Assembly (NCBI GenBank): GCA_000004985.1
Contig: GG738904.1
DNA length: 64,000 nt
Direction: 5' to 3' (one strand)
DNA from: Naegleria gruberi
Taxonomy: Eukaryota
Positions 2,013-64,000 of this stretch are shown here, in pieces. How positions within the stretch are numbered: position 1 is the first letter of the stretch; each line of letters starts with the position of its first letter. The notes beneath the pieces were generated by a model. That model made no database searches, was not told the origin of the DNA, and saw only the letters and a list, made by a program, of their open reading frames with translations. The translations under genes were made by a program, and so were the position numbers.

Positions 2013-3119
2013 ATGCAAAAATCAAAATTATTGATTAGCTTGTTTTGTTTGATGGTGCTTTTTGCACTCTTTGTTCAAGCTGATGGATCGTCGGGTGTTG
2101 TTCTCGAATTAAATACACAAAATTTTGAAACCACCATACAATCAAATCCACAAAAAGTTTTCTTTATTAAATTCTTTGCTCCATGGTGTGGTCATTGTAA
2201 AAGATTGGCTGGCACTTGGTCCGAATTAGCCAAAGAACTTGAGGATTCATCTGTTCCACACTTCCAAAATGTTCAATTAGCAAAGGTTAACTGTGATGAA
2301 CATCCAGATATTCGTAGAAAATATTCTATCAGAGGATATCCAACACTTGTTTTATTTGTTGGTGGAAAGCCTGTTACTGAATATTATGGTTATAGAACAG
2401 TTCCAAAATTCAAATCATTTTTGGATGATGTCTTTTCATCAGCTAAGAGTTCTGGATCTGTTGATCAAGTAACTGAAGTTGAATTGGAATCCAAAATTAA
2501 GAATCAAAACAGAGCTTGGACTGTCATGTTTTACAATTCCGAATCAGCTCAAACTAAACAATTTGACTCAAACTTCCAACAACTTGCTACCAATAATAAG
2601 GATACAAATAATTTCTTTGCCAAGATTGATTGTAATCAAGAAAAGGAGTTATGTACAAAGAGATTAACTATTGATCTTACTAATGGTCCTCAATTCGTCA
2701 TCTTTACTGGATCTGATAAGATGATGTCACAATTCAAGGAACAACCATCTGTAGAATCACTCCAAAAATTCATCACCAGTGGACATGTTAGTAGTAAGGT
2801 TCAAATTCCAGGACCAGTTGATAATACACCAACTATTCTTCACTTTTTGAATGACCATCCATATATTAGTATTGGTGTTGTTACCATGTTCTGTATTGCT
2901 ATTTGTGGTATCTTTTTGGCAATTCTCTGCATGTCTGATGATTCTGAAAAGAAAGGCAAGACTGAACCAGCTGAAAATACTGAAAATACTCAAACCAATC
3001 CAGCCAATAACTTTGATGTTTCCAGTGATGAAGAAGGTGACAAGGTTGTTGAAGCAACATCCAATGAAACTGCTCCATCCAATTTGAAGAAGAGAAATTT
3101 GAGTTCCAACAATGAATAA
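2013..3119 (+). CDS. Protein disulfide isomerase family / thioredoxin-related transmembrane protein (TMX-like)
   Basis: Signal peptide, thioredoxin active site FFAPWCGHCK, a second thioredoxin-like domain without CXXC, one C-terminal TM helix (ISIGVVTMFCIAICGIFLAILCM), and an acidic cytosolic tail. Confidence 0.85.
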   Translation: MQKSKLLISLFCLMVLFALFVQADGSSGVVLELNTQNFETTIQSNPQKVFFIKFFAPWCGHCKRLAGTWSELAKELEDSSVPHFQNVQLAKVNCDEHPDIRRKYSIRGYPTLVLFVGGKPVTEYYGYRTVPKFKSFLDDVFSSAKSSGSVDQVTEVELESKIKNQNRAWTVMFYNSESAQTKQFDSNFQQLATNNKDTNNFFAKIDCNQEKELCTKRLTIDLTNGPQFVIFTGSDKMMSQFKEQPSVESLQKFITSGHVSSKVQIPGPVDNTPTILHFLNDHPYISIGVVTMFCIAICGIFLAILCMSDDSEKKGKTEPAENTENTQTNPANNFDVSSDEEGDKVVEATSNETAPSNLKKRNLSSNNE

Positions 3120-14471: not shown

Positions 14472-15416
14472 ATGGAACAAAACGAACTTGCCTTTCATTC
14501 TCAATTTCTCTCATTAAACGGATATTGTTTGAATCTGGAAGAGAAGACTGCCCTTCAAAGCAGTTTGCTTATTCTCCAAGAAAATAACCATTTCCATACT
14601 GTACAATTCTGGGGAAAGATTCAAGGTGTAGAACAAGATTATCATATTGCCGAAGGATATCGTGGATCAATGATGGATGAAAGAATAAGATTTTACTCGA
14701 TCGATGGAGGAATTAGTTGGAATCAAATGACTTTTGACTTGACTGAATATGAGGTTTCCTGCATAGAATCAATCCGAACACTGTTCATGGGTATCCCAAC
14801 TCACACCTATTTATTCCCAAAACCAAAGGAAGAGTCTTCCGAAGAAGTCACTGACAAACAAGAAGTTCCAGTTGAGCCAAAGGAACCTAAGGATGATGAT
14901 GAGGATAATGAAGACAAAAATGATGAAAAAGCTGATGATGAAAAGAAGACAAAACCAAAGGAAGAGTTATTCACTATAACTGAAGAAAAGAGATTAACAT
15001 GGGCTGTAAAAATGATTGACCAAGACGGAAGTGTTGTACCAAGGGGTGCTTTTGTTGTCAAGAAGGATGACGAGCAGGTAATTGTAAAAAATCAAACATT
15101 CTTTGGAATGGATAAGTATCAAGCATCAAAGCTCTATAACTTTGTCCACCTCAGAACACCAATCCACAAAACATGGGAAAATATAGTTGCTCAACAATAT
15201 ATTGACAAGTCTCTTGATTTTGCTGATCCAGTTGATGATGACATACCATACGGTTGTTGGAGCGTCCAATATGAGGAAATTATTAATACTGTAGTTGGAA
15301 GAAGTCTTTTGTGGCCTGGCTACGTCTTTTATCACAAAATTCAAACCCCATTCTATGGAGGTTTCTATATTGGAAATGGTTTGAAGAATGTTGACCTTTG
15401 TTTTATGTTACCTTAG
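14472..15416 (+). CDS. RSPH9: Radial spoke head protein 9 homolog (axonemal)
   Basis: The N-terminal region ...HFHTVQFWGKIQGVEQDYHIAEGY matches the RSPH9 block (VLFWGRILGL.ADYYIAQG). Length and architecture fit, with an acidic low-complexity insert of about 60 aa. Confidence 0.75.
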   Translation: MEQNELAFHSQFLSLNGYCLNLEEKTALQSSLLILQENNHFHTVQFWGKIQGVEQDYHIAEGYRGSMMDERIRFYSIDGGISWNQMTFDLTEYEVSCIESIRTLFMGIPTHTYLFPKPKEESSEEVTDKQEVPVEPKEPKDDDEDNEDKNDEKADDEKKTKPKEELFTITEEKRLTWAVKMIDQDGSVVPRGAFVVKKDDEQVIVKNQTFFGMDKYQASKLYNFVHLRTPIHKTWENIVAQQYIDKSLDFADPVDDDIPYGCWSVQYEEIINTVVGRSLLWPGYVFYHKIQTPFYGGFYIGNGLKNVDLCFMLP

Positions 15417-25142: not shown

Positions 25143-26354
25143 TCATTTTTCTAATGTATTGCATTGTTTCTTCTCAACAACAAGATAACTAAGATGATGA
25201 TTCATTGTTTCACTCAAAAGTTTAGCACCATCTTCCATTTGAATTCCAGTATTGTAAATTGAAAGAGAAACTAATTGATATAGTCCACAGAGGTGTTTAA
25301 TACCTTCATCAGTAATATAATTTCCATTAAGATTAAGATTGGTCAATTGTTTCATTTCACCAATAAATTCAGCTCCTTCCTCACGAATATTATTCGAACG
25401 AATGTCAAGATTTGTTAAATATTTCATTTCACTAATATATTTAGCACCTCGATTACTTAGATAATTTTTACCAATATCAAGCTTAATCAATTGTTTCATT
25501 TCACTAATGTATTTAGCACCATCATCCCCAATTATATTTTTACGAATATTAAGATTGGTCAACTGAGTCATTTCACTCACTAATTTTGCTCCCTCAACTC
25601 GAATATTATTATTACTAATATTGAGATCTACCAATTGATGCATTCTCATTAAATGTTCAATGCCTTGATCACCAATACGATTTCCACCAACATTAAGACT
25701 GGTCAATTGTTTCAACGCACCAATGAATTTAACTCCTCTAACACCGATTTCATTATAATAAATATTGAGATGTGTAAGTTGTCTGATTCCATTACAGATG
25801 AATTTGGATCCATCTTCTCCTATCTTATTATGAGAAATGTCAAGATATGTCAATTGTTTCATTTTGCTAAGATATTTGGCTCCTTCTGAACTAATCCTAT
25901 TATACGAAACATTGAGCTTTGTTAATTTTGTGAGATTGCTAATATAAGAAACGCCTATATCACCAATATTATTCATTTTCATGTCAAGATCTACCAATCG
26001 ATTCTTCATCATTGCAGAAAATATTTTACAATCAAAAATAGTTTCGTTTCGTTTCTCCACTATTAATATTTCAATATTTTGAAGTAATTGACCTTTCAGT
26101 TTGTTATCATTTCTGCAAGTTAAAGAAAATCTTGATCTTTCCGAAATGACATTCAACCACTGTTTAGAAATTAGAGTACAATTTAGAATAAATTTAACAT
26201 CAAGAAATGATAAAATTTCAAAAATTGAATCATCTGAAAAGATGAGCAGAGAGTGTTTCAATTTTCGTTTAACTTTCGAATAGGATGTACTCGATGATTT
26301 GCTTGTTGTCTTTATGCGCATTTTTCTTTTAAATCTTTCTATTCGAAAGTGCAA
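25143..26354 (-). CDS. F-box / leucine-rich repeat protein (RNI-like LRRs)
   Basis: N-terminal F-box-like segment LLIFSDDSIFEILSFLDVKFILNCTLISKQWLNVIS, followed by about 11 LRR units of ~24 aa of type L..L.I..N.IG..GAK.ISEMKQLT. Confidence 0.7.
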   Translation of the reverse strand: MHFRIERFKRKMRIKTTSKSSSTSYSKVKRKLKHSLLIFSDDSIFEILSFLDVKFILNCTLISKQWLNVISERSRFSLTCRNDNKLKGQLLQNIEILIVEKRNETIFDCKIFSAMMKNRLVDLDMKMNNIGDIGVSYISNLTKLTKLNVSYNRISSEGAKYLSKMKQLTYLDISHNKIGEDGSKFICNGIRQLTHLNIYYNEIGVRGVKFIGALKQLTSLNVGGNRIGDQGIEHLMRMHQLVDLNISNNNIRVEGAKLVSEMTQLTNLNIRKNIIGDDGAKYISEMKQLIKLDIGKNYLSNRGAKYISEMKYLTNLDIRSNNIREEGAEFIGEMKQLTNLNLNGNYITDEGIKHLCGLYQLVSLSIYNTGIQMEDGAKLLSETMNHHLSYLVVEKKQCNTLEK

Positions 26355-32344: not shown

Positions 32345-33661
32345 ATGTCCTCCCCTCTGAAATCACCAAATAATTTAAAACCACTCACAATTGTCTCGCA
32401 TCATCATCATCACCACCACCCTTCTGCTGAGCAATGTGATTGTTTATTTTGCAATGACCAAGGAATGTCAACTCCGACACCTTCATCTACATTGGTTGTT
32501 GATGATAAAAAGTTTTTCCTTCCCTCTGAAATGTGGTATGAAATATTCAAATACTCGGATTTGTACACTCTTTCTGTATTGATGCAATGTCAGAGAAAGT
32601 GGAAATCAATTTACAAGATGAGAGGATTCAAGTCAAAAATTCAATTTTTAAGAATGATGACTGTAGAGTTGGTTGTGAATCAATTGAATTCTAGTAATGC
32701 GAGTATCAATAAGAAGAAATATGACGTTCCACAATATGCCATTAGTGGTAAATGTCAAATATCCCTTAACGAACAATATTTGAACAAGAAACATTGTGAG
32801 TACAATGATCTCACTAAAGTAATTAAAAAGTTAGACACTCTCAAAGACTTTATTTTGAAGGAAATAAAGCTTTGGGAAGAAGCTAATGGAAAAGTTGATT
32901 GTGACCAAATATTTTCAGTTTTCAAGTTAATGAACGACTTGTTCAAACCTGCAAATACATCACCATCTGGAAAAAGAAATGAAAAGAGGTTTGCAAAAGA
33001 TGCATTTGCCAGAGTTGCTATTGTTGGCGATCATAACATGTCAAAGACTACCTTCTTTAATACTTTCCGTTCTCAGATTGAAAATTTTGAATCAGAAGCT
33101 AACTGCTTAGACGATAATGTTGTCTTACATTCCAATAACTCTAACAAGATGAACAATTCCAGCTCTTATCAAATTTGGGATAATTACCAGAGTATTGATG
33201 TGACAACTATGCCTCCTTATTTCCTTAGACGAATCAATTTTTTGATTCTAATTTTTGACGTTTCGAATTTATCATCCTTCTTCAAGTTGCAAACTTGGGT
33301 AAATCAAGTTGTTTCAGGAAATTTAAAAATTGATACCATGCCAGAGTTTGTGTTAGTCGGTACAAAACATGACTTGCTAAAACCTCAAGATGTTGAGAAA
33401 TATTTAGAAAATCGAAACAAACATTACCAACCATTTGCTGACACTCTTGGAATTCCTTATATTGAAGTGGATTCGACAAATATAACGCATGTTGACTCTA
33501 TAATTCATTATTCACTTTCATGGACCTACTTTGTGCATTTGCTTCAAAATTTGTCCTCTACCCTTAAAACCCAACCAGATTCCAAACTTTACGAGAAAAC
33601 ATCTACTCCATCCTTTCATCTTCCCCAATATAGAACATTCGAGGCTAGACAATTAAACTAA
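32345..33661 (+). CDS. F-box-like N-terminal domain fused to a degenerate Ras-superfamily small-GTPase-like domain; contains a His7 run
   Basis: F-box-like LPSEMWYEIFKYSDLYTLSVLMQCQRKW. GTPase-like elements: RVAIVGDHNMSKTTFF (G1 with Ser replacing the conserved Gly), WDNYQSID (G3-like), LVGTKHDL (NKxD-like). HHHHHHH lies near the N-terminus. Confidence 0.5.
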   Translation: MSSPLKSPNNLKPLTIVSHHHHHHHPSAEQCDCLFCNDQGMSTPTPSSTLVVDDKKFFLPSEMWYEIFKYSDLYTLSVLMQCQRKWKSIYKMRGFKSKIQFLRMMTVELVVNQLNSSNASINKKKYDVPQYAISGKCQISLNEQYLNKKHCEYNDLTKVIKKLDTLKDFILKEIKLWEEANGKVDCDQIFSVFKLMNDLFKPANTSPSGKRNEKRFAKDAFARVAIVGDHNMSKTTFFNTFRSQIENFESEANCLDDNVVLHSNNSNKMNNSSSYQIWDNYQSIDVTTMPPYFLRRINFLILIFDVSNLSSFFKLQTWVNQVVSGNLKIDTMPEFVLVGTKHDLLKPQDVEKYLENRNKHYQPFADTLGIPYIEVDSTNITHVDSIIHYSLSWTYFVHLLQNLSSTLKTQPDSKLYEKTSTPSFHLPQYRTFEARQLN

Positions 33662-42441: not shown

Positions 42442-45400
42442 ATGGAACATTTACTCGTGTTGACTACTGTTGAAAGAATTGGTGATTCTCTTCCAAGTAC
42501 ACCTTCATCACAAAGAAGAAAGGGTTTCAATTTGAAGGGTTATATTAAAACACTCAATGAATTGATTGTTTTGCCAAATATTGACTTACACAAAGTGGTT
42601 CAACCTCTCGTTGATCTCTACGATAATGTCTCTAAAGTAAGTAGTTTTTCAGAAGGCTGTAGTGGTTTATTAACGCTACATGGTTTTTTTGTTGCAAATT
42701 TCATTATCATCATGTTTGGCGCCACAATTTTGTATCTTCCAATGACACAATTTTTCAACAATAACAACAACAAAACAAAATGATGATCAACTAATAATAT
42801 CATCATCATGCTGGTTATTATGTTGATATTTATCTAACAAAAACAAATTATCATATATAGACCACAATCAATGCTACATTAAAACCTTCTGAGAAAAGAA
42901 CAAAATTAGAGTTGATCAACAAATCAAAACTCATCATTCTCAATCTATTATCGGATTATATAAATTTTGCCATCGAAAATAAGGAAGTAAGTATGAATTA
43001 TTGTGAGGTTCATCAATATGAATTTGTTATTATTATTATTAATAATATATTTAATAGCTTGTTTTGCCAAATCATCACTTGAACAATTTGTTCTGTCAAT
43101 TTGATAATGATGATCTCTTGTTGGAAGAGAGACGTCAAGAACAAGATGAAGAAGAAGATGAAGATTTAGTTGCACTTGTTAAGGAACAATCAAAGAATGC
43201 TCATCAACCATCACAATCAGCTTCAACAATTACAGAAAGTACAAATGAAGGTAACGAATCTCCAAGTATTAAAAATGGATCTCTCAATCAGATCAGTGAT
43301 TTCGAATATGGGCATGAAAGAGGTAGATCACCAAGTGGCTTGGGAGCATCTCTTGATTATTTAAATGCTTACAAGCAAAGAAAACAAAAGAAATCTTCAT
43401 CAAAATCACAAAGAAACTTTAATGTAAAGAGAAGTGCTGCCACTTTTACTCAACCAAAAGAATTGGACGAAGCAACAGCTCTCAACATTATTCAATTAGT
43501 TTCCACTAGATTATTATTACAACATGATATGTTCTATGATGCCACACAAGAAGAAATCCAAAAAACAGCAGTTAATAATTATCTTGAACAACAAATTTCC
43601 TATAGATGTATGGAGATACTATTCAAAATAAGTGTTTGTAAACCAGATACTGTTTTCAAGACTATTGTTGGTGATTCATTACCTACATCACTTAATAATA
43701 ACTGTATGGATATCAGTTTTAATACTGATCTTCAATCTGACAAACTTCCTTTCTCTTCCTCTCTTTCACATTTCAAACTGATCGAATATGTAAATTGGAC
43801 AGTTGGTAATTTAGAAAAACTCTTAAAGGCAGTCAATGAAAACATGAAAGGTTTTACCAAATATTTGGAAGTCTTAACACCTCCTTTAAGATTAGCTATA
43901 TGGAACTTTATTACAAACTATAATAATGAATTTGTTGATATCATTAAGAATCCAAATGCTTCAATTGTTAATACAGCTAGAGAAACATTTGATAATATTT
44001 ATAAACAAACAGGAAAGAAACAAAAAAACAAGACATGGCCAGCACTTGCCACTTTATGCGTTTTGACTGCAGATGATCTTCTAAAGTGTGTAAAGGCAGG
44101 TAATGGTAAAAAGTTTGGTGGCAGTGAAAATATGACAACATTTATTCACAAAGATCTCTTAAAAGCAATGGAAGATAAGGATAAGTCTCTTATTTTACCT
44201 CCATTGATTGACATTTATAGAGCTGTATCATATGCACCATCAGATGTAGAAACAGCCTTTGCTGTTCTTTCTCTTTTGGTGGAAGAAAAATTCCTTTCCA
44301 TTTTTGTACCAGAACCAACAACAGGAAAAGTTTCTAAATGCTATAGTCCAGAAGAGTTGAATGAACTCGAAATGTGGACATTTTATGTAACAACACTTTA
44401 TAGAAGAAGCCCAGAAAAATGCAAAAAACAACTAATGATACCAATAATGGCAGATGGTACTTTAGAGCAAAAACAAACAGTTGCCAAAGTACTTCTTTTC
44501 CTTCTTACTGATAGATCTTCTCAATTTACCTACAATAGAAAGTTAGAAGTAGACTTTAAAGTACTTGCTTCATCTCTTCGTGAATTTTTCATTTCGACTA
44601 CAGATCAATTCAAAGGTAAAGCAAGAGAAACTGGTGATGATAATACTCCAACATTAGCACCAAGTGCATCCTTTAGAACACCAAAGAAAGGCTTTGCAGC
44701 TCTTTTAAGAGAGAAAGTAGGTGGTAAGGACAGTAGTAATTCTCCTACTGGATTGGGATCATTCGCAGGTCAACCAAACTTTAAAATGTTTGATACTGTT
44801 AACACAATTCTTCACGTTTTTTGTGCTGATCCAAGGTTTTTCCTTACAAAGTCAAACGAATCCGATCAAAATATCAATAATTTTGCCTATTTGGCTGACT
44901 TCTTTGTGCTAAATTCTGACCCAATTGTACAAGATCAAATAACTAGACTTTTCCAAAAGCTTTTCTTAGAACAATATATTAAGAACTGGGGAGATGATTT
45001 ATTTGTTGGATTCAGTACTATCTCAACAAGAGTTTTGTCAAGACTATCACCTGCTCTTTTCCTTCTTAATGAATTGGAACAATTGCAAGCAACAAAGACC
45101 TTACTTTTCCTTTTGAGAAACATTACCTATTGTGCTAAGAAATTCTATATTGCTAACAGAGACACTTATTTACTTTTGGAACACATTAGAACTAACCCTG
45201 ACAGAATTAATACTCTTGAAGTTTTATGTAGTAACTTATTGGTATGCCTTTGCTCAACTGATAAGGAGATTTGGCAGTCTACTACAAGATGTTTGAGAGA
45301 TGTTTGTGACCAAATTGAAATTTTGAATAATCACAACATTAAGAAGTTGAATTACAATTTTTACAGACAATTGGCAAGCATTGACTTGAATGGTAAATTT

Positions 45401-48400
45401 TACAATGAAAGAAAGTCACAAATCCAACTTTTCAAGAGAGTTGAAACTCAAACACCATCCATTTTGAAAGCCTTTGGTGAGGTTTATAACAGATGGAAGG
45501 AACTTCTTGATCAACTCAAGAGTGAAGATTCTGCTTCAAATATTACCTTGAGAGATTTGTTCCCTAATTACACCTCTTTGCTATGTGCTCTCGGTGGTGT
45601 ATGCATTCAAGATACAAAGGATGAAGATTCAAGCTTTGTTCTTGATTTCTTAAAGCCAGAGGCAACAAGTGCCAATAATGTTGACAGTTATATGGATGAC
45701 TTGATGAAACAAGTTATTTCAGACGATGTCAATGTCAGACAAATGGTAACCATCTCTGTTTCTACTGATTTATCACCAAGTCTTTTCACTAAATTGTTCA
45801 CTGCCATGAAGGCTTCAGTTCAAGAACAATTCGGACAAACATTTGTTATTAGTCAAAAGAATAACTTACTTGTTGATCAATATCTTCACATTCTCAAGAC
45901 AATTGTTGAAAATCCAGATACTAATACTGATCTTTCTCTTGCTCAAGAAATTGATTCCATTACTGATCTCTTTGCTAACTATTGTACACACAGCGAATTT
46001 GATAACAAGGATGTCCTTGAGTTGAAGAAGAAATTATGTCAATTCCTTGAAGTTTTGATGAGCAAAGTTGAATACTTGACTTTCAAGAACATTGAAGAAC
46101 AAAAGTTGAGAAGAACAATCATTGGTCACGTTATGGAATGGACAACTGATTCTGTCTTTAAAGAAAAGACATCAACCGGAGCAAGTGTATCAACTCCTCG
46201 TGTTGCTTCTGAGGCTCCTCTTCTAGAAAACAATTCCCAAGTTTCAACTGAAGTCAAGAAACTCTACACCGATCTTGATTTGTTGTGCATGAAGGCATGT
46301 ACTTCCCTTATCAATGGTATGGTTATTGCAAACGATGAAAAAGGAAGAGAAGAATATTCAAAATACTTTGCTTTCTTATTGAGATTCCTTGAAAAGGCTA
46401 AAGACAGTACTTTTACAGCTACAATTTACAAGGCCTTCTCTAGATTATTGCAAACAAACGTCAGTTTTGGTCTTGAGTATTACATGTCAAAGGTCTACGA
46501 TAATAATAACACTATTAGATCAACATTCTTGGGATTGCTATCTGAATTGATCAAGAAGGGACTTTTGGTTGAAGAAGAAGAAAAAAATAAGCAAGACAGA
46601 GTTTCTATTTCTGAATACCAAGAAATTATCAACAAACTTGTCTTTACCAATAGAAAGAGAGCTCTTTTTGCACTTTTTGATAAGTGCAAGAATCCAGAAA
46701 AAGATGATTTGTGTGAAGCTGTTATTAGAGTTTATCAATCAAAGGGTGAAATTGATAAGAATTTATTAGATTTGTTCCGTCAAAGTGTTACCAGAGAAGT
46801 TGCAACCACACCAAAATCACAACCTGAAACTCTTTTCAGAGCTAACTCAACCTCTACTAAACTCTTAAAGAAGTACTGTTTGAGAGTCAGTAACCCATAC
46901 TTGACAACTGTTATTGGTGGGTTCATCGATACTATGTGTACTAAGCCAACCAAATTTGAAATCGATCCACTGAAGGCTCAACAAAGAGGAGAAAGCGTTG
47001 AAGAAAACGTTGAAAATATTCTTGAAGTATTACAAGAATTTATTGACTGCCTCTGTGATTCAGTCCAACAAACACCTTACACCTTCAGAATGTATTGCAG
47101 ATATTTGTACGAAGAAGTTGGTAAGAAATTCACTAAACCAGATGATGACAATGATGAACAATTTGACTTTAAATATATTGCAGTTGGTGGTTTCTTAATT
47201 TTGAGATTGATTTGTCCAGCCATCACTTCTCCACATTTGTATGGTTTGTCAGGAAGTGATATTCCTGCTGACTCTAGACGTTATGCAATCATTCTTACAA
47301 AGTTGGTTCAAAACTTGGCAAACGGTATTGTTGACTCCAAGAAGGAAGAATTCATGAAGAATTTTGTTGATATTATTAGACTTAATCTTAACAAGATTCA
47401 AACCTATTTTGAAAAGATTGCTGCTCCAATAGTTGAAAATGAAGAAGTTTTGAGAATTGAAGAAACAGTCACTGAAGATGAATTGAAGGAAGCATATGAA
47501 GTTCTCTATAGATTCTTCTATAACTATGCTGATACATTGAGAGAAGAATTAAGTTCACTCTATGATGATATTGAAGATGAGGAAAAGGAAGTATTGGAAG
47601 AAGTTGATATCAATGAAAAGCCATCCTCTAAACAAAACGGTAAATCTCTCAATGATCTCTTAGAAAAGGCTATTGAACAATTTGGTAAACCAGCTGAAGA
47701 AGAAAAAACAGGAAGAAGACTTTCTGTAAAGCTTAGCAAGGATGATGAGTTCTCCAATCCATTACTTAAGGAATTGCTCAGAAAGAATGAAAAGAAAGAT
47801 ACCTCAAAGATTGCTGAAATGAAATTCTTCTCTATCAGTGAACACAAGAATGCTAAGAATCAACGTATAGTTTATTTCATTCCTTACAATTTGGATTTGA
47901 CTAGATTCTCTCTTGATTTATACTTGTACTATGTTCTCAAGAGTATGGAAACCATTTGGAAGGAACCTTATATCATTGTTGTAGATTCTACCTTCTTGAC
48001 AAAGAAATTTGATATTCGTTTGTCTGTATTTATTCAACTTTCCAAACACATTCCACAAGGTGCAAAGAAGAATCTTCAAGAAATTTACTTGGTTAACCCA
48101 AATACATTCTTCAACAAGACCACTAAGAAGCTTGTCTCCATGTTAAGTCATAATCGTTGGAAGGTCATTACTACCAGCTCTTTGCCAGCTGTCACTGACC
48201 AAAAATCAAAGACTCCAACCTCAAAGGATCCATTAGAACTTGTCAAACCTGAACATTCTATGCTTCCATCTCTCACTCAACAATTGTATGAAAAGAGTGA
48301 AATAATATATAATACTGAAGTTGTTCTTGCTTCTCATACAACTGATTGTGAAATTAGACTCTTTGATCAATACATGTTTATTGTTATCAAGGGAGAAAAG

Positions 48401-51337
48401 TTTATTAATAACAAGGTACCAGCAGATTGTTTGGAACATGTCAATGTAACAAAGATTGCCAATATTGCTGTAAAGAAGTCATTGTTTGGTAAATCAAGCA
48501 AGGCCACTAAAGATTTTGTTGTCAAGTATATTGATGATGAAGATGCTGAAGCAGCCTACAACTTTAGAGCTCAAACCATTGAAGAAAGAGACCAAATTAT
48601 GCAAGGTATTAGAAACTATGTTGAAAGAAAATCAAGAGGAACAAAGACTGGAAAATCTCTTGAACGTGAATTTAAGAGACTTAAACTTCAAGATGTACCA
48701 GGTCAACTCCTTGCTATTTCATTCTTCAATCTCGATTCTAAACACACTCCAATTAGAGCTAGTGCTTATTCGTTACTTGCTTCTATCTTTGAACAAGTCA
48801 AGATTTCTTCTCATGGTTTGATTTTAGAAAGTGATGCTGCTTATGTTCCAAGAAATACTGAAAATACTGTTTTGAGAATTAGTGAATACGTTGCCAGAAA
48901 TAAGCCTGAACTCACTTTAGAATTCATTTGTGAAGCTCTCAATGCCTTCAAGACAATCCAAGGAAATAAGTCCAAGTTGAAGTTTGCATCCTTCATCCTC
49001 CCATGGCTCGATAACTTGTCAAGATTTGAAATTTCTACTAGTGTTGATGAAGTTGATGAAAAGACCGAAACAATTAAGAATTGGTTCGAAAACTTTACCA
49101 AACTCTGTATTGCCAATGAAGAAATCTATCCAAAATTACAAAATGTTTGGAAGCACGTCTGTAAACTCTCTTTGCCACTCATTAGAATTGCTATTGAGAG
49201 TGTTATCAAACAAGGTACAACAAGTGAAATGCTCATGAATGGAGAACAATCTATTATTGGCGATATTTTAGGAACTATTTTGTTGCACTCACCTCTTCAA
49301 TGGAATGTGGCTCAATTTATCATTAACAAGATTGTTGAACCACTCATGACAGAGGAATTGAATATTGACCTTTTGAACAAAGCAACAGTTAAAGAGTTGG
49401 TGAAATCAAAAGATATTCTAGGCAAGATTCCAGTTTACATGTCTTATCTCCTTATGTTGTCTTTTAATAGTCAAATCAATTTGTTAGAGAATTTGCCATA
49501 CGTACTCTTTATTATTTCTCTCTTCTTGGGTGTTGGTTCAGATACCTACTTGAGATCAATTGTTTATGGTATTTGTTGTAACTGTGTTCACTCCCTTGTT
49601 TTGGAATTGCCAGCATGTGAACAATTTGAGCATGTAAGAGCCAAATTGCAAAAGCTTCATTTGAGAGTTCTTGAAAAGGACATCAAGTCAAGTTTCATGG
49701 GTGGTGAACATGAACCACAACCTTTTGCCTCATACTCTGATTTTGTCAATAAGGTTTCACAAGGAAAGGTAACATTCGATGAAACTACCATGTACAAGTA
49801 TGAAGATATCATGAGATACTTTAAGGAAATCATTGAATGCTTTGACTTTAGTTACGATAGCCTTATTCAAGCTAGGGGTAAGACTTTGAAATCTCAATTT
49901 GGTTCTACCATTATAACCTCATCCAAGGCAACTCATAGTGTTATTGAAGAATCATCTGAAAATTCCAAGGATATGGATGAAGATGGTACAGAAAATGATA
50001 TGACAGAAGGAGAAGTTGATGATGAGCATAACGGTTCTAATCCAAGCACTAGCACCTCAGATATCGTTAAATCTGGCAGTGATACCATCAAGAGTGTTTG
50101 GTTGAAGATCTTTACCAACTTATGTAAGGATACCATGAAGACAGCCAATCTCTTATTGTTCCCTAAATCTTTAATCTCATTCAGTATTATTTCCACCTCA
50201 GAACAATCATATGATATGATTCCATTTGTTCTTAACTTTATTGGTAAGCGTGGTGTTGAAACTCTCTCCGAAAATGAGCTAATGTTGTCTGTTCTATTGT
50301 CAATTAACCAATTCTGTATTAATATGGTTGTTGAAAAGGATAGAATTGAAACTTTGAGAAAGATTATTATCTTTGGATTCTTCTTGTTGACCATTGCCAA
50401 CACAAAGATTTATTCTGCTGTAACCAAGTTGCTCAGTACAGTTTTTGCCATTCTTTTTGAAGCTAGAGATATTCATGACGGTTTCTTGTCTATTGGTGAT
50501 TACTTTAATCAAGTTTTCAGATCTGACTACTCCAAGTACCTATCCATCACTAAAGAATTTGAAGAAACTGTTGGACTTTCATTTGGCCAACACTTCTCAT
50601 TCACCGTTTCTCTTCTTCTCATGAAGGGACTTGCTATTGATGACTCCACCATTAGAAAGGCAACTATTTCTCTCCTCAAACAAATCCTCTCTATCAGTTA
50701 CAAACTCAAGTTTGAACCACAAAACCAACTAGGCTTTATTGCTGCTTTAATTCCATTCGATAAGCAGTACAACTCTGTATTATATAGTGAACAACTCTAT
50801 TCTGAAAGCATGTTCACTAAGGAAACTGTTTTCCTCTTCCAAAAGTACCTCTTTAGCATTACTGCATCCAACATTGATCTTGATAGCTGTGCTTCTGTTT
50901 ATAGATCACTTGCAAGAGGTTTTGAAGCCATTCCTGATACTTTTGCAGATGTTTTCCAAGATCACCACAGTATGTCTCAAGTCATTAAGGTATACACCTC
51001 CTCTCAAGATGATACTATCATTGAACATAGTTTGAATCTTTTCAAGATTATGAGTAATAATGCCAAATCAAAGAAACTTCAAGTTAAGGAACCATTTGCT
51101 GATTATGGATTCAAAGGTTTCCGTGATCAAACTACATTCCAAACCACTAAGGATGACTTGAAGAAGAAATGTCAAAAGACTTTGATTACATTCTTAACTG
51201 AAAACTTTAATGAACAAGAATATCCATCCATGGATTCTGTAATTATTTCCAAGACTGGTATGAAGAAATCATTCCTTAAAGCCGCCTCTTCAAGTCCAGT
51301 TGTAAGACAAGCATCAGGAACAAACTTTAAGAAATAA
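42442..51337 (+). CDS. NF1: Neurofibromin (NF1)-like RasGAP with RasGAP and Sec14/CRAL-TRIO-like regions; 3 exons (42442..42636, a short exon ending at 42986 whose 3' splice site is unresolved (42912 is one in-frame candidate), 43058..51337)
   Basis: RasGAP arginine-finger block TLFRANSTSTKLLKKYC (NF1 has TLFRGNSLASKIM) and the FLR-PAI motif GGFLILRLICPAITSP. The N-terminal exon pattern KLIILNLLSDYINF resembles NF1 QLIILDTLEKCL. The last exon is a 2757-aa ORF. Intron 2 is 72 nt (GTAAGTATGA...TTTAATAG); intron 1 is about 220-275 nt. Confidence 0.85.
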
Positions 51338-51408: not shown

Positions 51409-52112
51409 TTGATATATTATCTTAAGCACAAATATTATTCATTAGAATATTATTTATTTAAAAAAATGTCAAAACCAACTTTGAATATTTGCCTGTTGGG
51501 AAATGTTGATTGTGGAAAATCAACACTGACAGGAAAATTATTAGAAGTTATCGGAGGTGATTCTTCCTATTCTGAAAAGATTAAAAAATCAACTAGTAAG
51601 AATTTTGTCGAGTCAAAAAATCATTTCTTGAATTTAATGGATGTTTGGGGTATGTGGAATTAATTGTGATTAAAATTGAAAAGTATTGATTTAAAGTGGA
51701 TCAATACCTCCTGCTGGAAGTAGCAAAGGTATTTGAGGAAGATTCGAACAAGGGTATTAGAAATATAGTGATAATTGTATTGGATGCCTCGTCAGGTGGA
51801 TATGAGGCCGGCCTTAGTCAACTAAAACATCTCTTGCTATTTTTGAAAACTCTGGAAGGTATTATGCATAACAAACAATTTATATTTTGTGTGAATAAGA
51901 TGGATCACTCAAGTGTTAATTATTCTGAATTGAGATTTAAAGAAATTGTCAATGAAGTATCTAGAATGGTCACTCGGCTTGGATTCTCACAACCACCACC
52001 ACAATTCATTCCAATATCCTCACTGAAATGCGAAAATATTTTAGAAAATTGTGAAAACATGAGTTGGAATGCAAGTCAACCTTCACTACTGGATGTTATA
52101 AACTCATTGTAG
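51409..52112 (+). CDS. eEF1A/EF-Tu-like GTPase G-domain-only protein (~220 aa) with partly degenerate motifs; 2 exons (51409..51649, 51697..52112)
   Basis: G1 GNVDCGKST and G4 FCVNKMD are present, with eEF1A-like blocks (RFKEIVNEVS; IPISSLKCENILENCENMSW versus eEF1A [20 protein letters not shown]). No RGITI-type G2 motif and no domains II/III. A 47-nt intron GTATGTGG...TTTAAAG (51650..51696) joins the two ORFs in frame. Confidence 0.55.
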
Positions 52113-52125
52113 CAAAAATCTTTCA

Positions 52126-52196
52126 TGTTCCTGCCAGGAATTGAACCCCGGACTTTCTAAAATGGTCCGTTGTAAAATTCTACAGTTTTCAAAATA
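52126..52196 (-). other. tRNA-like fragment: a B-box/T-arm-like GGTTCAATTCC and an anticodon-like stem, but no canonical D-arm or acceptor pairing
   Basis: The minus strand reads ...ACGGACCATTTTAGAAAGTCCGGGGTTCAATTCCTGGCAGGAACA. There is no A-box, the acceptor stem cannot be paired, and the anticodon loop would be 11 nt. It is probably a tRNA pseudogene or tRNA-derived remnant, not a functional tRNA. Confidence 0.2.
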
Positions 52197-52310
52197 AATC
52201 AAGAGTATACATTTTTCGCAAAGTTTAATCTCTTGATAGTTAGTAATCTGAAAGGGAATCTTCACCTATTTATCTCTCAGTTTTCATAAAGAAAAATATA
52301 TAAAACAAAA

Positions 52311-53073
52311 TGATAATCAGCTGAGGATAGATTTGATCTTTTCAATGACATTTTTTCTATTGCCACATCAACTGTTGAAAATATTGATTCCTCTTTAATG
52401 TTTGAAATGCTTCTTGCTTTGAAGAATGATGACACTAGTATTTTGTGGGAAAATATGTATCAATCCATTCTCAAACTTCATCAATTGTTGGCCGCCGAAA
52501 GTGTTTCAAACTCATTCTCTAGAATGGTAAAAGATTTGGTTAAAAACAAGTATGAATCAATTGGATGGACCAATGTACCAGGAGCAGATGAAGATGAGGA
52601 AAATCTTGATGAATTACGTCCATCTCAATTTGGCCTGTCGTTTTGGTCTCACTGAATGTGTCACTGAAGCCTTTAAACGTTATCAAGAAAGAAACTCAAC
52701 CATTATTCCTCCAATTCTTCGTAATGCTGTTTATAGAGCTGTTGTTTCTAATGGTGGAGAACGTGAATATTATCAAATTTTGAATCAATTCAAAGCTGAG
52801 CAAGATTCTGTGGAAAGAACCAAGTTAGTGTATGCAAGATTCCACTCTTGCAAACGACCTTGGATTTGGCCCTTTCTCCACCATGTTAAGCCACAAGATA
52901 GTATCTTCCTTATTAGAGAAGTTGCAAGAAATGTACCAAGTGGACCAAACGTTGCTTTTGTCAGAACTAGATATGATGCCATTCTCTCAAAATGTGGACA
53001 AGATCAAGTCAGTAATAGATTATCATATGGGGTTGGTTCTCTATTCACTAATATCTTTGAAAGGGATGAATAG
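52311..53073 (+). pseudogene. Remnant of an M1-family (aminopeptidase N/ERAP1-like) aminopeptidase: C-terminal helical domain only, with a +1 frameshift near 52620-52635
   Basis: ...LACRFGLTECVTEAFKRYQERNSTIIPPILRNAVYRAVVSNGGEREYYQILNQFKAEQDSVERTKL aligns with aminopeptidase N [63 protein letters not shown]. The upstream frame (52311..52655) matches the preceding part of the same domain but lies in a different frame. No catalytic HEXXH or GAMEN domain is present anywhere upstream. Confidence 0.55.
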
Positions 53074-53103
53074 ATTCAATATTTTGCTCCAAATATTGAA
53101 AAA

Positions 53104-53688
53104 TTGAGCATGAAGCATTATTATATTAGTGGAATGAAACAATTAACATTACTTAATATTGGGAACAATCAAATTGGTGTAGAAGGATCCAAATTCATAC
53201 ATGAAATGAAACAATTAACATCACTTGATATATATTATAATGAAATTGGTGTAGAGGGATCCAAATTCATAAGTGATATGAAACAATTAACATCACTTAA
53301 TATTAATTACAATCGAATTGGTGATGAAGGAGCCAAATTTATAAGTGAAATGAAACAATTAACATCACTTGATATTTATAACAATGAAATTGGTGTTGAA
53401 GGAGTCAAATCAATAAGTGAAATGAAACAATTAACATCACTTAATATCAGTGGAAATCAAAGTGGTGCCGAAGGAGTCAAATTAATAAGTGAAATGAAAC
53501 AATTAACATCACTTAGTATTAATTACAATCGAATTGGTGATGAAGGAGTCAAATTAATAAGTAAAATGAAACAATTAGCATCACTTGATATTAGTGGAAA
53601 TGGAATTGGTGATGAGGGAGCCAAATTAATAAGTGAAATGAAACAATTAAAATCGCTTAGTATTCATAACCAACAGATGTTTAAGTAA
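53104..53688 (+). CDS. LRR-only protein or gene fragment: 8 near-identical 24-aa RNI-type leucine-rich repeats encoded by a 72-bp nucleotide tandem array
   Basis: Units of type EMKQLTSLDIYNNEIGVEGVKSIS repeat with high nucleotide identity. There is no F-box, unlike the paralog at 25143..26354. It may be a truncated or recently expanded copy. Confidence 0.5.
   Translation: MSMKHYYISGMKQLTLLNIGNNQIGVEGSKFIHEMKQLTSLDIYYNEIGVEGSKFISDMKQLTSLNINYNRIGDEGAKFISEMKQLTSLDIYNNEIGVEGVKSISEMKQLTSLNISGNQSGAEGVKLISEMKQLTSLSINYNRIGDEGVKLISKMKQLASLDISGNGIGDEGAKLISEMKQLKSLSIHNQQMFK
53131..53660 (+). repeat. 72-bp-period tandem repeat array (about 7-8 units) forming the LRR coding sequence
   Basis: High nucleotide identity between units (GAAATGAAACAATTAACATCACTTGATAT...). 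Confidence 0.7.
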
Positions 53689-61520: not shown

Positions 61521-62050
61521 TTTTTATTTTATAATTAAATTAATTTTTAATATAGAATTAAAATTAGCAATCGAGTTCATTGTTGCTTTTTATTGAATAA
61601 TCGAATAGGTGATGTAATTAAAGGAGTTTACAACAATTTAATATTAAATAGTATTTTTTTTAAATATATTATTATTTCAATCCATTCATTGTAAAAATAA
61701 CAAAATCGAAACGAGATCAAAAGCTAAATATACATTAAGAATTGAATTAGAGTCAATGACCAGTGTCTACGATTATTTAGAACCCAAAATATTAAACAAC
61801 AAGTAACTCCGGGATCCGATAAACGGAGAAGAAATTGTAAAGTTTTATTCCGGTGGTATTTTTTTTAGAGCCTTGCTGAACAAGCAGGCTTCAACAACAG
61901 CGAGGCTTGCTTGACTTTTGGTTTTATTGCTGTGAAGAGCAAGACTACCAAATCGTTTCTCTTGAAAAAATAAAATAAATTTAAAAATTATTTAACAAAT
62001 TTACGTAAAAAAAATAAGACCATACACACTCTACCCATCATCCAATAAAA

Positions 62051-63871
62051 ATGAGAGAAGGAGAAAGTCAATACGGTGATATCTTGTCTGTTTCAGGACC
62101 AGTCGTCGTTGCTGAAAAGATGGAAGGTGCTGCCATGTACGAACTTGTTCGTGTTGGTAATCAACAACTTGTGGGTGAAATTATTCGTTTGGAAGGTGAT
62201 ACTGCCACAATCCAAGTCTACGAAGAAACATCAGGTTTGACTGTTGGTGATCCAGTATTGAGAACTGGACAACCATTGTCTGTTCACTTGGGTCCAGGTA
62301 TCATGGGTAGTATTTTCGACGGTATCCAACGTCCTTTGGAAGTCATTTATAAAAACTGCAATGAAGATATTTACATTCCTAGAGGTATTAACGTAAATTC
62401 ATTGGATATGGATAAGAACTGGTTTTTCAACCCAACAAACTTCTCTATTGGTGATAAAATCACTGGAGGTGACATTTTCGGTGAAGTTGAAGAAAATGAC
62501 TTTATTAATCACAAAATCCTCCTTCCACCAGGTGCTATGGGTGAAATTACTTATATTGCTAGCCCAGGTAACTATACTCTTAACGATGCTGTCATTGAAG
62601 TTGATTTCAATGGTATGAAGAGACAATTCGGTATGGCCCACTTCTGGCCTGTACGTCAACCTCGTCCAGTTATTGAAAAGTTAGCTGGTGATTATCCAAT
62701 TTTGACTGGTCAACGTGTTTTGGATGCTGTCTTCCCTTCTGTCCAAGGTGGTACTTGTGCTATTCCAGGTGCCTTTGGTTGTGGTAAGACTGTCATTTCC
62801 CAAGCTATTTCTAAATATTCTAACTCTGAAGCTATTATCTACGTTGGTTGTGGTGAACGTGGTAACGAAATGGCTGAAGTATTGATGGAATTCCCTCACC
62901 TTACTGTTACTAATCAAAAGACTGGTAAGGAAGTTTCTATCATGAACAGAACTTGTCTTGTTGCTAACACTTCAAACATGCCTGTTGCTGCCAGAGAAGC
63001 TTCTATTTATACTGGTATTACATTGTCCGAATATTTCAGAGATATGGGTATGAACGTTGCTATGATGGCTGACTCTACTTCTCGTTGGGCTGAAGCTTTG
63101 AGAGAAATTTCTGGTCGTCTTGCTGAAATGCCTGCTGACTCTGGTTATCCAGCTTATTTGGGTGCTCGTTTGGCTTCTTTCTATGAACGTGCTGGTAAGG
63201 TTCGTTGTATTGGTAATCCAGGTCGTACTGGTTCAATTACTATTGTCGGTGCTGTTTCTCCACCTGGTGGTGACTTTGCCGATCCAGTTACTGCTTCAAC
63301 TTTGGGTATTGTCCAAGTCTTTTGGGGTTTGGATAAGAAATTGGCTCAAAGAAAGCACTTCCCTTCAGTCAACTGGCTCATTTCCTACTCTAAATACATT
63401 AACTCTTTGGAACCTTTCTATGAAAAGGTCGATCCTGAATTCGTTCGTTTGCGTACAATCATGAGAGAAATTCTCCAACAAGAAGAAGATTTGACAGAAA
63501 TTGTCCAATTGGTCGGTAAGGACTCACTCCCAGAAAACGATAAGGTTACATTGGAAGTTGCTAAATTATTGAGAGAAGATTTCTTGCAACAAAACTCATT
63601 CACTGATTATGACAAGTATTGTCCATTCTTTAAGACTATTCTCATGTTGCGTAACTTTATTAAATTCTATGAAGATTCTCAAAAGGCTGTTCAAGAATCA
63701 GGTGCCAAGATTACATGGAACACAATTAAGAATGCCATGACTGATTTGACTTACAAGTTGTCAAGCCAAAAGTTTATCAAGCCATCCCTTGGTGAAGCTG
63801 GTGTTAAACAACAACTTAACGACCTTTATCAAGAAATTTCAAATGCTTTCAAGAATCTTGAAGAAGAGTAA
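62051..63871 (+). CDS. ATP6V1A: V-type proton ATPase catalytic subunit A
   Basis: 606 aa. The N-terminus [29 protein letters not shown], the P-loop GAFGCGKTV and Walker B are typical of V-ATPase A (non-homologous region included). Single exon. Confidence 0.95.
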
Positions 63872-64000
63872 ATATATAAACCAATTTTGTAATAATATTG
63901 AAAATTTAAAAAACACGTGTTTAATTTTCTTCAATTTAACACAAACAAGGCAAAAAATGTTTAAATTTAGTCATCATCAAAATATTAACAACAGTTCGGA

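Follow-up and report, generated by a model that had tools for sequence, protein, structure and literature searches.

What is an eEF1A-like GTPase domain that ends in a stop codon exactly where the β-barrel domains should begin: the visible part of a longer gene, the remains of a broken one, or a small protein in its own right? The locus that raises this question lies on the plus strand of a 64-kb stretch of Naegleria gruberi DNA, the whole of which we refer to as the window. Here, two mechanically called open reading frames (51409-51663 and 51696-52112) form a single frame once a 47-nt intron is removed. In the resulting model, exon 1 (51466-51649) encodes residues 1-61 and the first base of codon 62, the phase 1 intron (51650-51696) runs from GTATGT to TTTAAAG, and exon 2 (51697-52112) encodes residues 62-199 followed by the stop codon TAG at 52110-52112. 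The intron, which had been postulated in the initial annotation, proved real in form, in that it opens with GTATGT, closes with AAG and, once spliced out, restores the frame across two ORFs that are both homologous to eEF1A. It can also be regarded as typical for this DNA, because its size and donor fit the other introns that can be inferred in the window (42-53 nt, with GTAAGT or GTATGT donors and YAG or AAG acceptors); longer in-frame introns of 71-146 nt were rejected, since they would remove residues homologous to the eEF1A family. The start codon had to be moved, however: the homologous N-terminus (M-S-KPTLN...) begins at the ATG at 51466, behind a run of A residues, and the TTG at 51409 is only the start of the mechanical ORF, so that the product, first put at about 220 residues, is in fact 199 amino acids long. 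It reads MSKPTLNICLLGNVDCGKST...NKMD...RFKEIVNEVS...FIPISS...NMSW...LLDVINSL, and the strings by which its similarity to eEF1A was originally recognised (GNVDCGKST, NKMD, RFKEIVNEVS and IPISS...NMSW) are all present.

The similarity to elongation factor 1A goes well beyond chance. Pfam assigns the product to GTP_EFTU alone (2.7e-14), and its best matches in the PDB are archaeal and eukaryotic EF1A proteins (6.8e-19 to 3e-17), with weaker similarity to eRF3 (3e-12) and HBS1 (5e-12) and with Ski7 absent from the matches at E <= 0.01. The EF1A matches stop at about residue 217-223 of the factor, that is, at the end of domain I, which bears out the earlier placement of the stop codon at the end of the G domain. 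A G-domain HMM run over the whole 64-kb window retrieved the two exons (3.9e-31 and 1.8e-7) and nothing else. The protein itself found no match in a collection of 5.8 billion proteins that includes the N. gruberi proteome, and as no identical or near-identical protein occurs there, the gene is unannotated; a first word-indexed search had returned only two weak matches at 31% identity, and a scan of metagenomes a single irrelevant match of 20 residues to the P-loop. SnoRNA-like Rfam matches within the exons (E 0.66-3.6) were set aside as chance.

The five G motifs have fared very differently. Exon 1 carries the start codon, strand β1, the G1 motif or P-loop, GNVDCGKST (residues 12-20, 51499-51525), which conforms to the GxxxxGK[ST] pattern, and a shortened helix region. 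Then comes a net in-frame deletion of 30 residues, with its junction at about 51600-51612, which has removed switch I together with strand β2 and leaves 17 residues opposite 47 in the closest paralogue; in an alignment with canonical eEF1A the same deletion appears as a gap of 26 columns. The RGITI motif of G2, with its magnesium-coordinating threonine, falls within it, and its loss, already noticed in the initial annotation, is thus confirmed. We considered and rejected the possibility that the gap reflects a missed exon, given that exon 1 is one continuous ORF and that the G-domain HMM finds no additional piece. Strand β3 is kept (NHFLNLMD), and exon 1 ends with the D-V-W (51640-51648) of a G3 motif that has changed from DAPGH to DVWVD, keeping the aspartate and replacing the glycine by valine and the catalytic histidine by aspartate; the splice junction falls inside the fourth codon of this motif (G|TG, valine). 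The first part of exon 2 holds a remnant of the switch II helix with a 7-residue insertion, strand β4 and the EAG region with a 3-residue deletion to which we return below, and its later part holds strand β5 with G4 intact as NKMD (51894-51905), a G5-like ISSL that is recognisable by alignment only (ISGW or ISAL in relatives) and the last G-domain helix, ending in LLDVINSL. Neither the β-barrel domain II nor domain III (GTP_EFTU_D2, and GTP_EFTU_D3 or GTP-eEF1A_C) is represented in the product.

The roles of these residues are well established for EF-Tu and eEF1A. With G1, G4 and the G5 region preserved, the product might still hold a guanine nucleotide; lacking switch I, the glycine of DxxG, the catalytic histidine and domains II and III, it is predicted to be one that cannot work as a translational GTPase, as it would neither bind aminoacyl-tRNA nor cycle between switch states nor hydrolyse GTP. 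Because G2, G3 and domains II and III are missing, it also falls outside the functional eEF1A, eRF3, HBS1 and Ski7 groups. At the sequence level it answers to the description of a pseudoGTPase, a GTPase fold whose catalytic motifs have been lost.

When full-length paralogues were sought, as the initial annotation had suggested, the gene turned out not to be a truncated canonical eEF1A, HBS1 or eRF3, and a different set of relatives came to light. An exhaustive HMMER search with exon 2 alone, followed by a cluster look-up, identified as nearest relatives two N. gruberi “predicted proteins”, NAEGRDRAFT_60891 (XP_002671928, 432 aa) and NAEGRDRAFT_60950 (XP_002670889, 445 aa), to which a profile search added one more, P0156, encoded on a contig of an ENA metagenome. 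These three score 849, 641 and 462 bits against the profile and are followed by canonical eEF1A at 370 bits or less; in BLAST the EF-like protein reaches 121 bits with NAEGRDRAFT_60891 and at most 94 bits with everything else. Its identity is 41% to each of the three, whose identity among themselves is 55-60%, and 32-34% to canonical eEF1A. It also agrees with the clade at 15 of the 28 sites where a residue fixed in the clade departs from canonical eEF1A, and it has the 3-residue deletion after EAG, which is specific to the clade, the N-terminus (E/S)KPTL, the strand ETKH/ESKN-x-x-LN-(I/L)-(I/M)-D, and the stretches IFCVNKM and LLDxINSL. No clade members from outside N. gruberi were seen among the 8000 word-sharing candidates that were scored, and a literature search found no paper citing the accessions of NAEGRDRAFT_60891 or NAEGRDRAFT_60950. 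Judged by these shared residues, the EF-like gene is a member of a very divergent eEF1A clade seen only in N. gruberi.

Two properties of this clade bear directly on the history of the locus. First, the glycine and histidine of G3 are lost throughout, the motif reading DAPVG, DAPAN and DAPAA in the three relatives and DVWVD here, so that on the evidence of the alignments all members of the clade share the catalytically dead state. Second, the phase 1 intron in the fourth codon of G3 was read in the DNA of three members, as G|TG in the window, as G|CT in P0156 (where exon 1 ends GAT GCT CCA G| and exon 2, as reconstructed, opens |CT) and as G|TT in NAEGRDRAFT_60891 (where exon 2 opens |TT GGA after ...AAATAG), the latter two on short ENA contigs, and this intron is by the same comparison ancestral to the clade. 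Because it is retained, the EF-like gene does not qualify as a processed pseudogene or retrocopy. The suggestion of a pseudo-GTPase made in the initial annotation stands as far as the dead motifs are concerned, but since neither the DxxG glycine nor the catalytic histidine is present in the full-length members of the clade, this state is older than the truncation. What sets the EF-like protein apart from its relatives is the rest: all three keep the switch I region (...KIGRTIQ... or ...RGRTMN...) and domains II and III in a three-domain architecture of about 430-445 residues, whereas it has lost both, consists of 199 residues of G domain only and carries additional insertions of 7 and 4 residues. 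The gene for P0156 (461-1793 of contig k127_526178 in ENA ERZ929261; 434 aa as reconstructed, G3 = DAPAA, 43-nt intron) is a full-length dead-G3 member known from this metagenome alone and absent from the annotated proteins of N. gruberi; it could be a fourth paralogue of N. gruberi itself or belong to a sister strain.

The surroundings of the gene are of two kinds. Upstream, an uninterrupted plus-strand ORF of 2757 codons (43064-51337) encodes a neurofibromin-like protein with RasGAP and CRAL_TRIO_2 domains and ends 128 nt before the EF-like gene. At E <= 1e-5, its C-terminal 1199 residues have no match among the proteins of a collection that includes the N. gruberi proteome, and for this reason the neurofibromin-like gene, too, appears to be missing from public annotation. 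Downstream, in contrast, the EF-like gene borders on a 2.4-kb patch of debris from other genes. The first item, on the minus strand (52126-52153), looks like the 3′ half of a tRNA, with a T arm containing the B-box-like GGTTCAATTCC, the 3′ strand of an acceptor stem and an oligo-T; it reads GTCCGGGGTTCAATTCCTGGCAGGAACA and is followed by the oligo-T, which reaches the complement of the EF-like stop codon, the piece itself lying 14 nt from that stop and marking the place where homology to the EF family ceases. It has no 5′ half, occurs as a single copy in the window and is accepted as a tRNA by neither ARAGORN nor Rfam; calls obtained with relaxed ARAGORN settings (serine with a 179-nt “intron”, or asparagine) were mutually inconsistent and were dismissed as spurious. 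Next comes a plus-strand fragment of the C-terminal domain of an M1 aminopeptidase (ERAP1_C, 52322-53103; profile positions 36-300 of 318, 2e-39), which is clearly a piece of a pseudogene, as it carries three frameshifts (at about 52630-52645, about 52840 and about 52880) and an in-frame TAG (53071-53073) and has no catalytic domain upstream. Directly in frame with its end begins a plus-strand ORF of LRR_6 repeats (53104-53688, 194 aa). The rearranged locus that had been reported downstream is thus real, a frameshifted and interrupted ERAP1_C pseudogene fused to an LRR piece. The LRR_6 ORF is without the N-terminal part that is present in a complete member of its family at 25143-26354, and beyond it a GBF1-like gene, on the minus strand, has its 3′ end.

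The initial annotation had left a choice between a truncated pseudo-GTPase regulator and the first casualty of this rearrangement, and both readings survive the tests described here. The one we prefer, at about an even level of confidence, is that the EF-like gene is the remnant of a recently truncated gene whose reading frame has not yet been broken. The anatomy of the gene, its membership in the clade and the absence of domains II and III from the window are what was observed; we infer that the truncation was recent and that the remnant is no longer under selection. The locus is a copy from the N. gruberi-only clade of divergent eEF1A paralogues, with a GTPase centre that was already inactive. 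This copy had a long history as a coding gene, in which it lost a net 30 residues of switch I and β2 in frame; a rearrangement would then have cut it at the linker between domains I and II and joined it to the tRNA-like remnant and, beyond that, to the ERAP1_C and LRR fragments. What remains is the 5′ 199 codons, with the ATG, the splice sites, the P-loop and NKMD intact.

The principal alternative, to which we assign a probability a little short of even, is that the gene is maintained and expressed as a stand-alone pseudoGTPase of 199 residues. Such a protein would bind nucleotide via its intact P-loop and NKMD/ISSL, with neither hydrolysis nor a conformational switch, and could serve as a constitutive adaptor or decoy, its putative partners being shared with eEF1A or with the full-length members of the clade and contacted via the surfaces of the G domain. 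The state of the reading frame speaks for this possibility in several ways. None of the usual marks of a pseudogene (frameshift, premature stop or lost splice site) is found in the 199 codons, the ATG and the canonical ends of the conserved intron being likewise intact, and the sole “lesion” is the truncation itself together with the large in-frame losses. At a genomic G+C content of 33% this is not a trivial property: shuffled versions of the coding sequence contained 15.9 stops on average and none of 20,000 was open, and simulated neutral substitution, with indels ignored, broke the frame in 50% of cases once divergence had reached 2% and in 93% once it had reached 8%. The ORF would consequently not outlast more than a few percent of neutral divergence, and if the gene is dead, it must have died very recently. 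Moreover, the paralogues differ from the gene in length at 4-5 places (-30, +7, +4, +1 and about 1 residue), every one of which preserves the frame, and since all are multiples of three, the frame was under selection while most of the divergence accumulated, very probably also while switch I was being lost and even thereafter. On the whole evidence the gene was thus functional over a long period.

The nature of the protein that the frame encodes points the same way. The hydrophobic pattern of β1, β3-β6 and the helices has been kept despite a divergence of about 59% of residues, and 27 of 42 ultra-conserved sites are retained, G1 and G4 among them, at an overall identity to canonical eEF1A of 33%. 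The cut lies within 1-2 residues of the end of the last G-domain helix and is followed immediately by the stop codon, with no junk tail; a random breakpoint would, by our estimate, fall at the end of the G domain with a likelihood of only a few percent. The adjacent pseudogene displays the neutral decay to be expected locally, with four disabling lesions in about 780 nt of the ERAP1_C fragment, whereas the EF-like gene displays none in 644 nt, a contrast whose Poisson probability we estimate at about 0.04 if one event dates both. Finally, the whole clade is catalytically dead and has nevertheless kept long ORFs, which implies that non-catalytic functions exist in it.

Several observations nonetheless weigh against a maintained protein. 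All three clade relatives keep domains II and III, and we know of no eEF1A-family protein that lacks them. The loss of β2 takes a core strand out of the G-domain sheet, so that stable folding of the product is doubtful. Of the sites that are invariant in canonical eEF1A and the paralogues, the EF-like protein keeps 59-65%, as compared with 78-91% for each paralogue, and its codon-usage score (0.18) stands at the 5th percentile of real genes in the window. The latter score fails as a discriminator between live and dead genes, since the frameshifted ERAP1_C pieces outscore the EF-like gene. There is, furthermore, no orthologue or identical protein in any of the collections searched, and the gene is set amid obvious gene debris. 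The stronger proposition, namely that N. gruberi maintains a 199-residue G domain derived from eEF1A as a nucleotide-loaded, non-switching binding module, born by truncation of a dead paralogue and devoid of switch I, β2 and domains II and III, is put forward only tentatively, as rather more doubtful than not.

Could the gene, on the other hand, be of full length after all, with exons for domains II and III beyond a long intron, outside the window, or lost to a mis-assembly at about 52113? The abruptness with which homology breaks off at the stop codon, and the GTAG at 52109 that could formally serve as a splice donor, would be in keeping with such a structure. Further exons for domains II and III downstream, which would contradict the account given in the initial annotation, were therefore looked for within the window, and none that is credible was found. 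In tblastn searches of the 64 kb with yeast and human eEF1A, only the two EF-like exons were detected, and the part of eEF1A beyond residue 235 yielded no match better than E = 4. An HMM of domains II and III, built from 27 full-length sequences (25 database relatives and the yeast and human references), was run against all stop-to-stop segments of the six frames of the window, and its strongest hit had an E of 2.3. When every GT..AG pair starting in the final 200 nt of exon 2 was listed, each splice that extends the ORF turned out to need a donor off the consensus and an intron of 222 nt or more, in a window whose introns measure 42-53 nt, and to lead into the ERAP1_C or LRR pieces, never into EF-type sequence. 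In the two paralogues whose DNA was read, moreover, there is no intron at this position and exon 2 continues uninterrupted into domains II and III. The absence of domains II and III that had first been noted for the product hence holds for the whole 64 kb, a full-length gene within the window is already largely refuted, and we consider the full-length reading in general to be very improbable.

Equally improbable, in our judgement, is that the EF-like gene forms the 5′ module of a chimeric transcript with the ERAP1_C and/or LRR pieces, for instance a fusion of G domain and LRR, from fragments that a mobile element capable of capturing genes might have brought together: three protein-coding fragments are indeed tightly packed on the plus strand, ERAP1_C runs in frame into the LRR ORF and formal GT..AG pairs exist (e.g., 52109 to 53109), but the required introns would be 222-1400 nt long and would have to use donors like GTAGCA or GTTATA, unlike any intron inferred in the window, the ERAP1_C part carries its three frameshifts, no transposon termini or repeats were identified and the tRNA-like piece is single-copy in the window.

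Returning to the two readings that remain, the preferred truncated remnant and the maintained protein, it is instructive to compare the product with systems that are better known. With canonical eEF1A and aEF1A (PDB 1JNY, 1F60 and 4C0S) it has in common the G-domain fold as judged by sequence, with G1, the NKxD of G4, the region of G5, and helix α5 as far as the linker between domains I and II, and it differs in the loss of RGITI, of the DxxG glycine, of the catalytic histidine and of domains II and III. These latter domains are the platform on which eEF1A binds aminoacyl-tRNA and eEF1B. The same GTPase family has been re-used for roles other than delivery of aminoacyl-tRNA in eRF3, HBS1 and the hydrolysis-deficient Ski7, the last of which binds GTP and is devoid of the catalytic histidine; all three, however, keep domains II and III as well as N-terminal extensions, and the EF-like product does not belong to their subfamilies.

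The nearest published concept is that of the divergent, “re-modelled” EF-1α which co-occurs with EFL in some lineages and to which only auxiliary roles outside translation are ascribed (Kamikawa et al. 2013, PMC3699394). Like the EF-like gene, it is a fast-evolving copy of eEF1A, but it takes the form of full-length proteins of three domains, and not of a truncated copy with dead motifs; Naegleria is not mentioned in PMC3699394 or in PMC3938643. Domains described as pseudoGTPases, such as pG1 and pG2 of p190RhoGAP (PMC5593906) and AAGAB (PMC12490416), offer a second parallel, being GTPase-fold modules with degenerate G motifs, and the EF-like product would similarly be expected to act by binding. 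Those examples have Ras-like or other small-GTPase folds and are backed by experimental structures; the EF-like product may be called, at most, akin to a pseudoGTPase.

The most likely explanation is, in summary of the weighing above, the ordinary one of a truncated paralogue, its unusual aspect being that a domain-precise remnant of a dead eEF1A clade has an intact ORF. Should the gene be a relic of this kind, its value lies mainly in annotation and evolution: an unannotated copy is documented, attention is drawn to an uncharacterised N. gruberi clade in which the catalytic G3 was lost and full-length ORFs were kept, i.e., a translation factor turned pseudoenzyme, and birth-and-death turnover in this clade is seen beside a patch of gene debris. 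Should it be functional, an EF-Tu/eEF1A-type G domain would exist as an independent module with neither switch I nor β-barrels, which would be new for this class of GTPases, and it would provide a minimal handle on the binding partners of the dead eEF1A paralogues. To our knowledge no eEF1A-type G domain has been described in isolation before, and this, if true, would be the first case of a translational GTPase giving rise to a pseudoGTPase that stands alone.

A few observations concern the window at large. Its genes are densely packed and mostly single-exon ORFs. Two of them match public proteins exactly, the ORF at 2013-3119 (EFC38840.1) and that of the V-ATPase A subunit at 62051-63871 (EFC38853.1), both on the same 297-kb scaffold. 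The interval from EFC38840 to EFC38853 comprises only 14 accession numbers, as against 25 ORFs of at least 200 aa in the window, which suggests under-annotation if the numbering follows the order on the scaffold. A further contig from ENA ERZ929261 (k127_53315) is 98.9% identical to 61752-64000 of the window, with an identical V-ATPase A protein. The occurrence of Naegleria DNA of this identity in an ENA “metagenome” indicates that a second strain of the N. gruberi group exists in public data, and it could serve for tests of polymorphism. Exact look-ups in this strain with likely prokaryote-style gene calls of the locus (exon 1 from its ATG or TTG, exon 2 from a GTG, and the LRR ORF) gave no match, for which amino acid differences, other gene calls or lack of a corresponding contig are possible reasons. 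Two other plus-strand genes of the window, both unrelated to the EF-like gene, encode a radial-spoke-head-like protein (14472-15416) and a protein of 438 residues (32345-33661) in which a small GTPase domain of the Ras/Roc type forms the C-terminus behind a long N-terminal extension.
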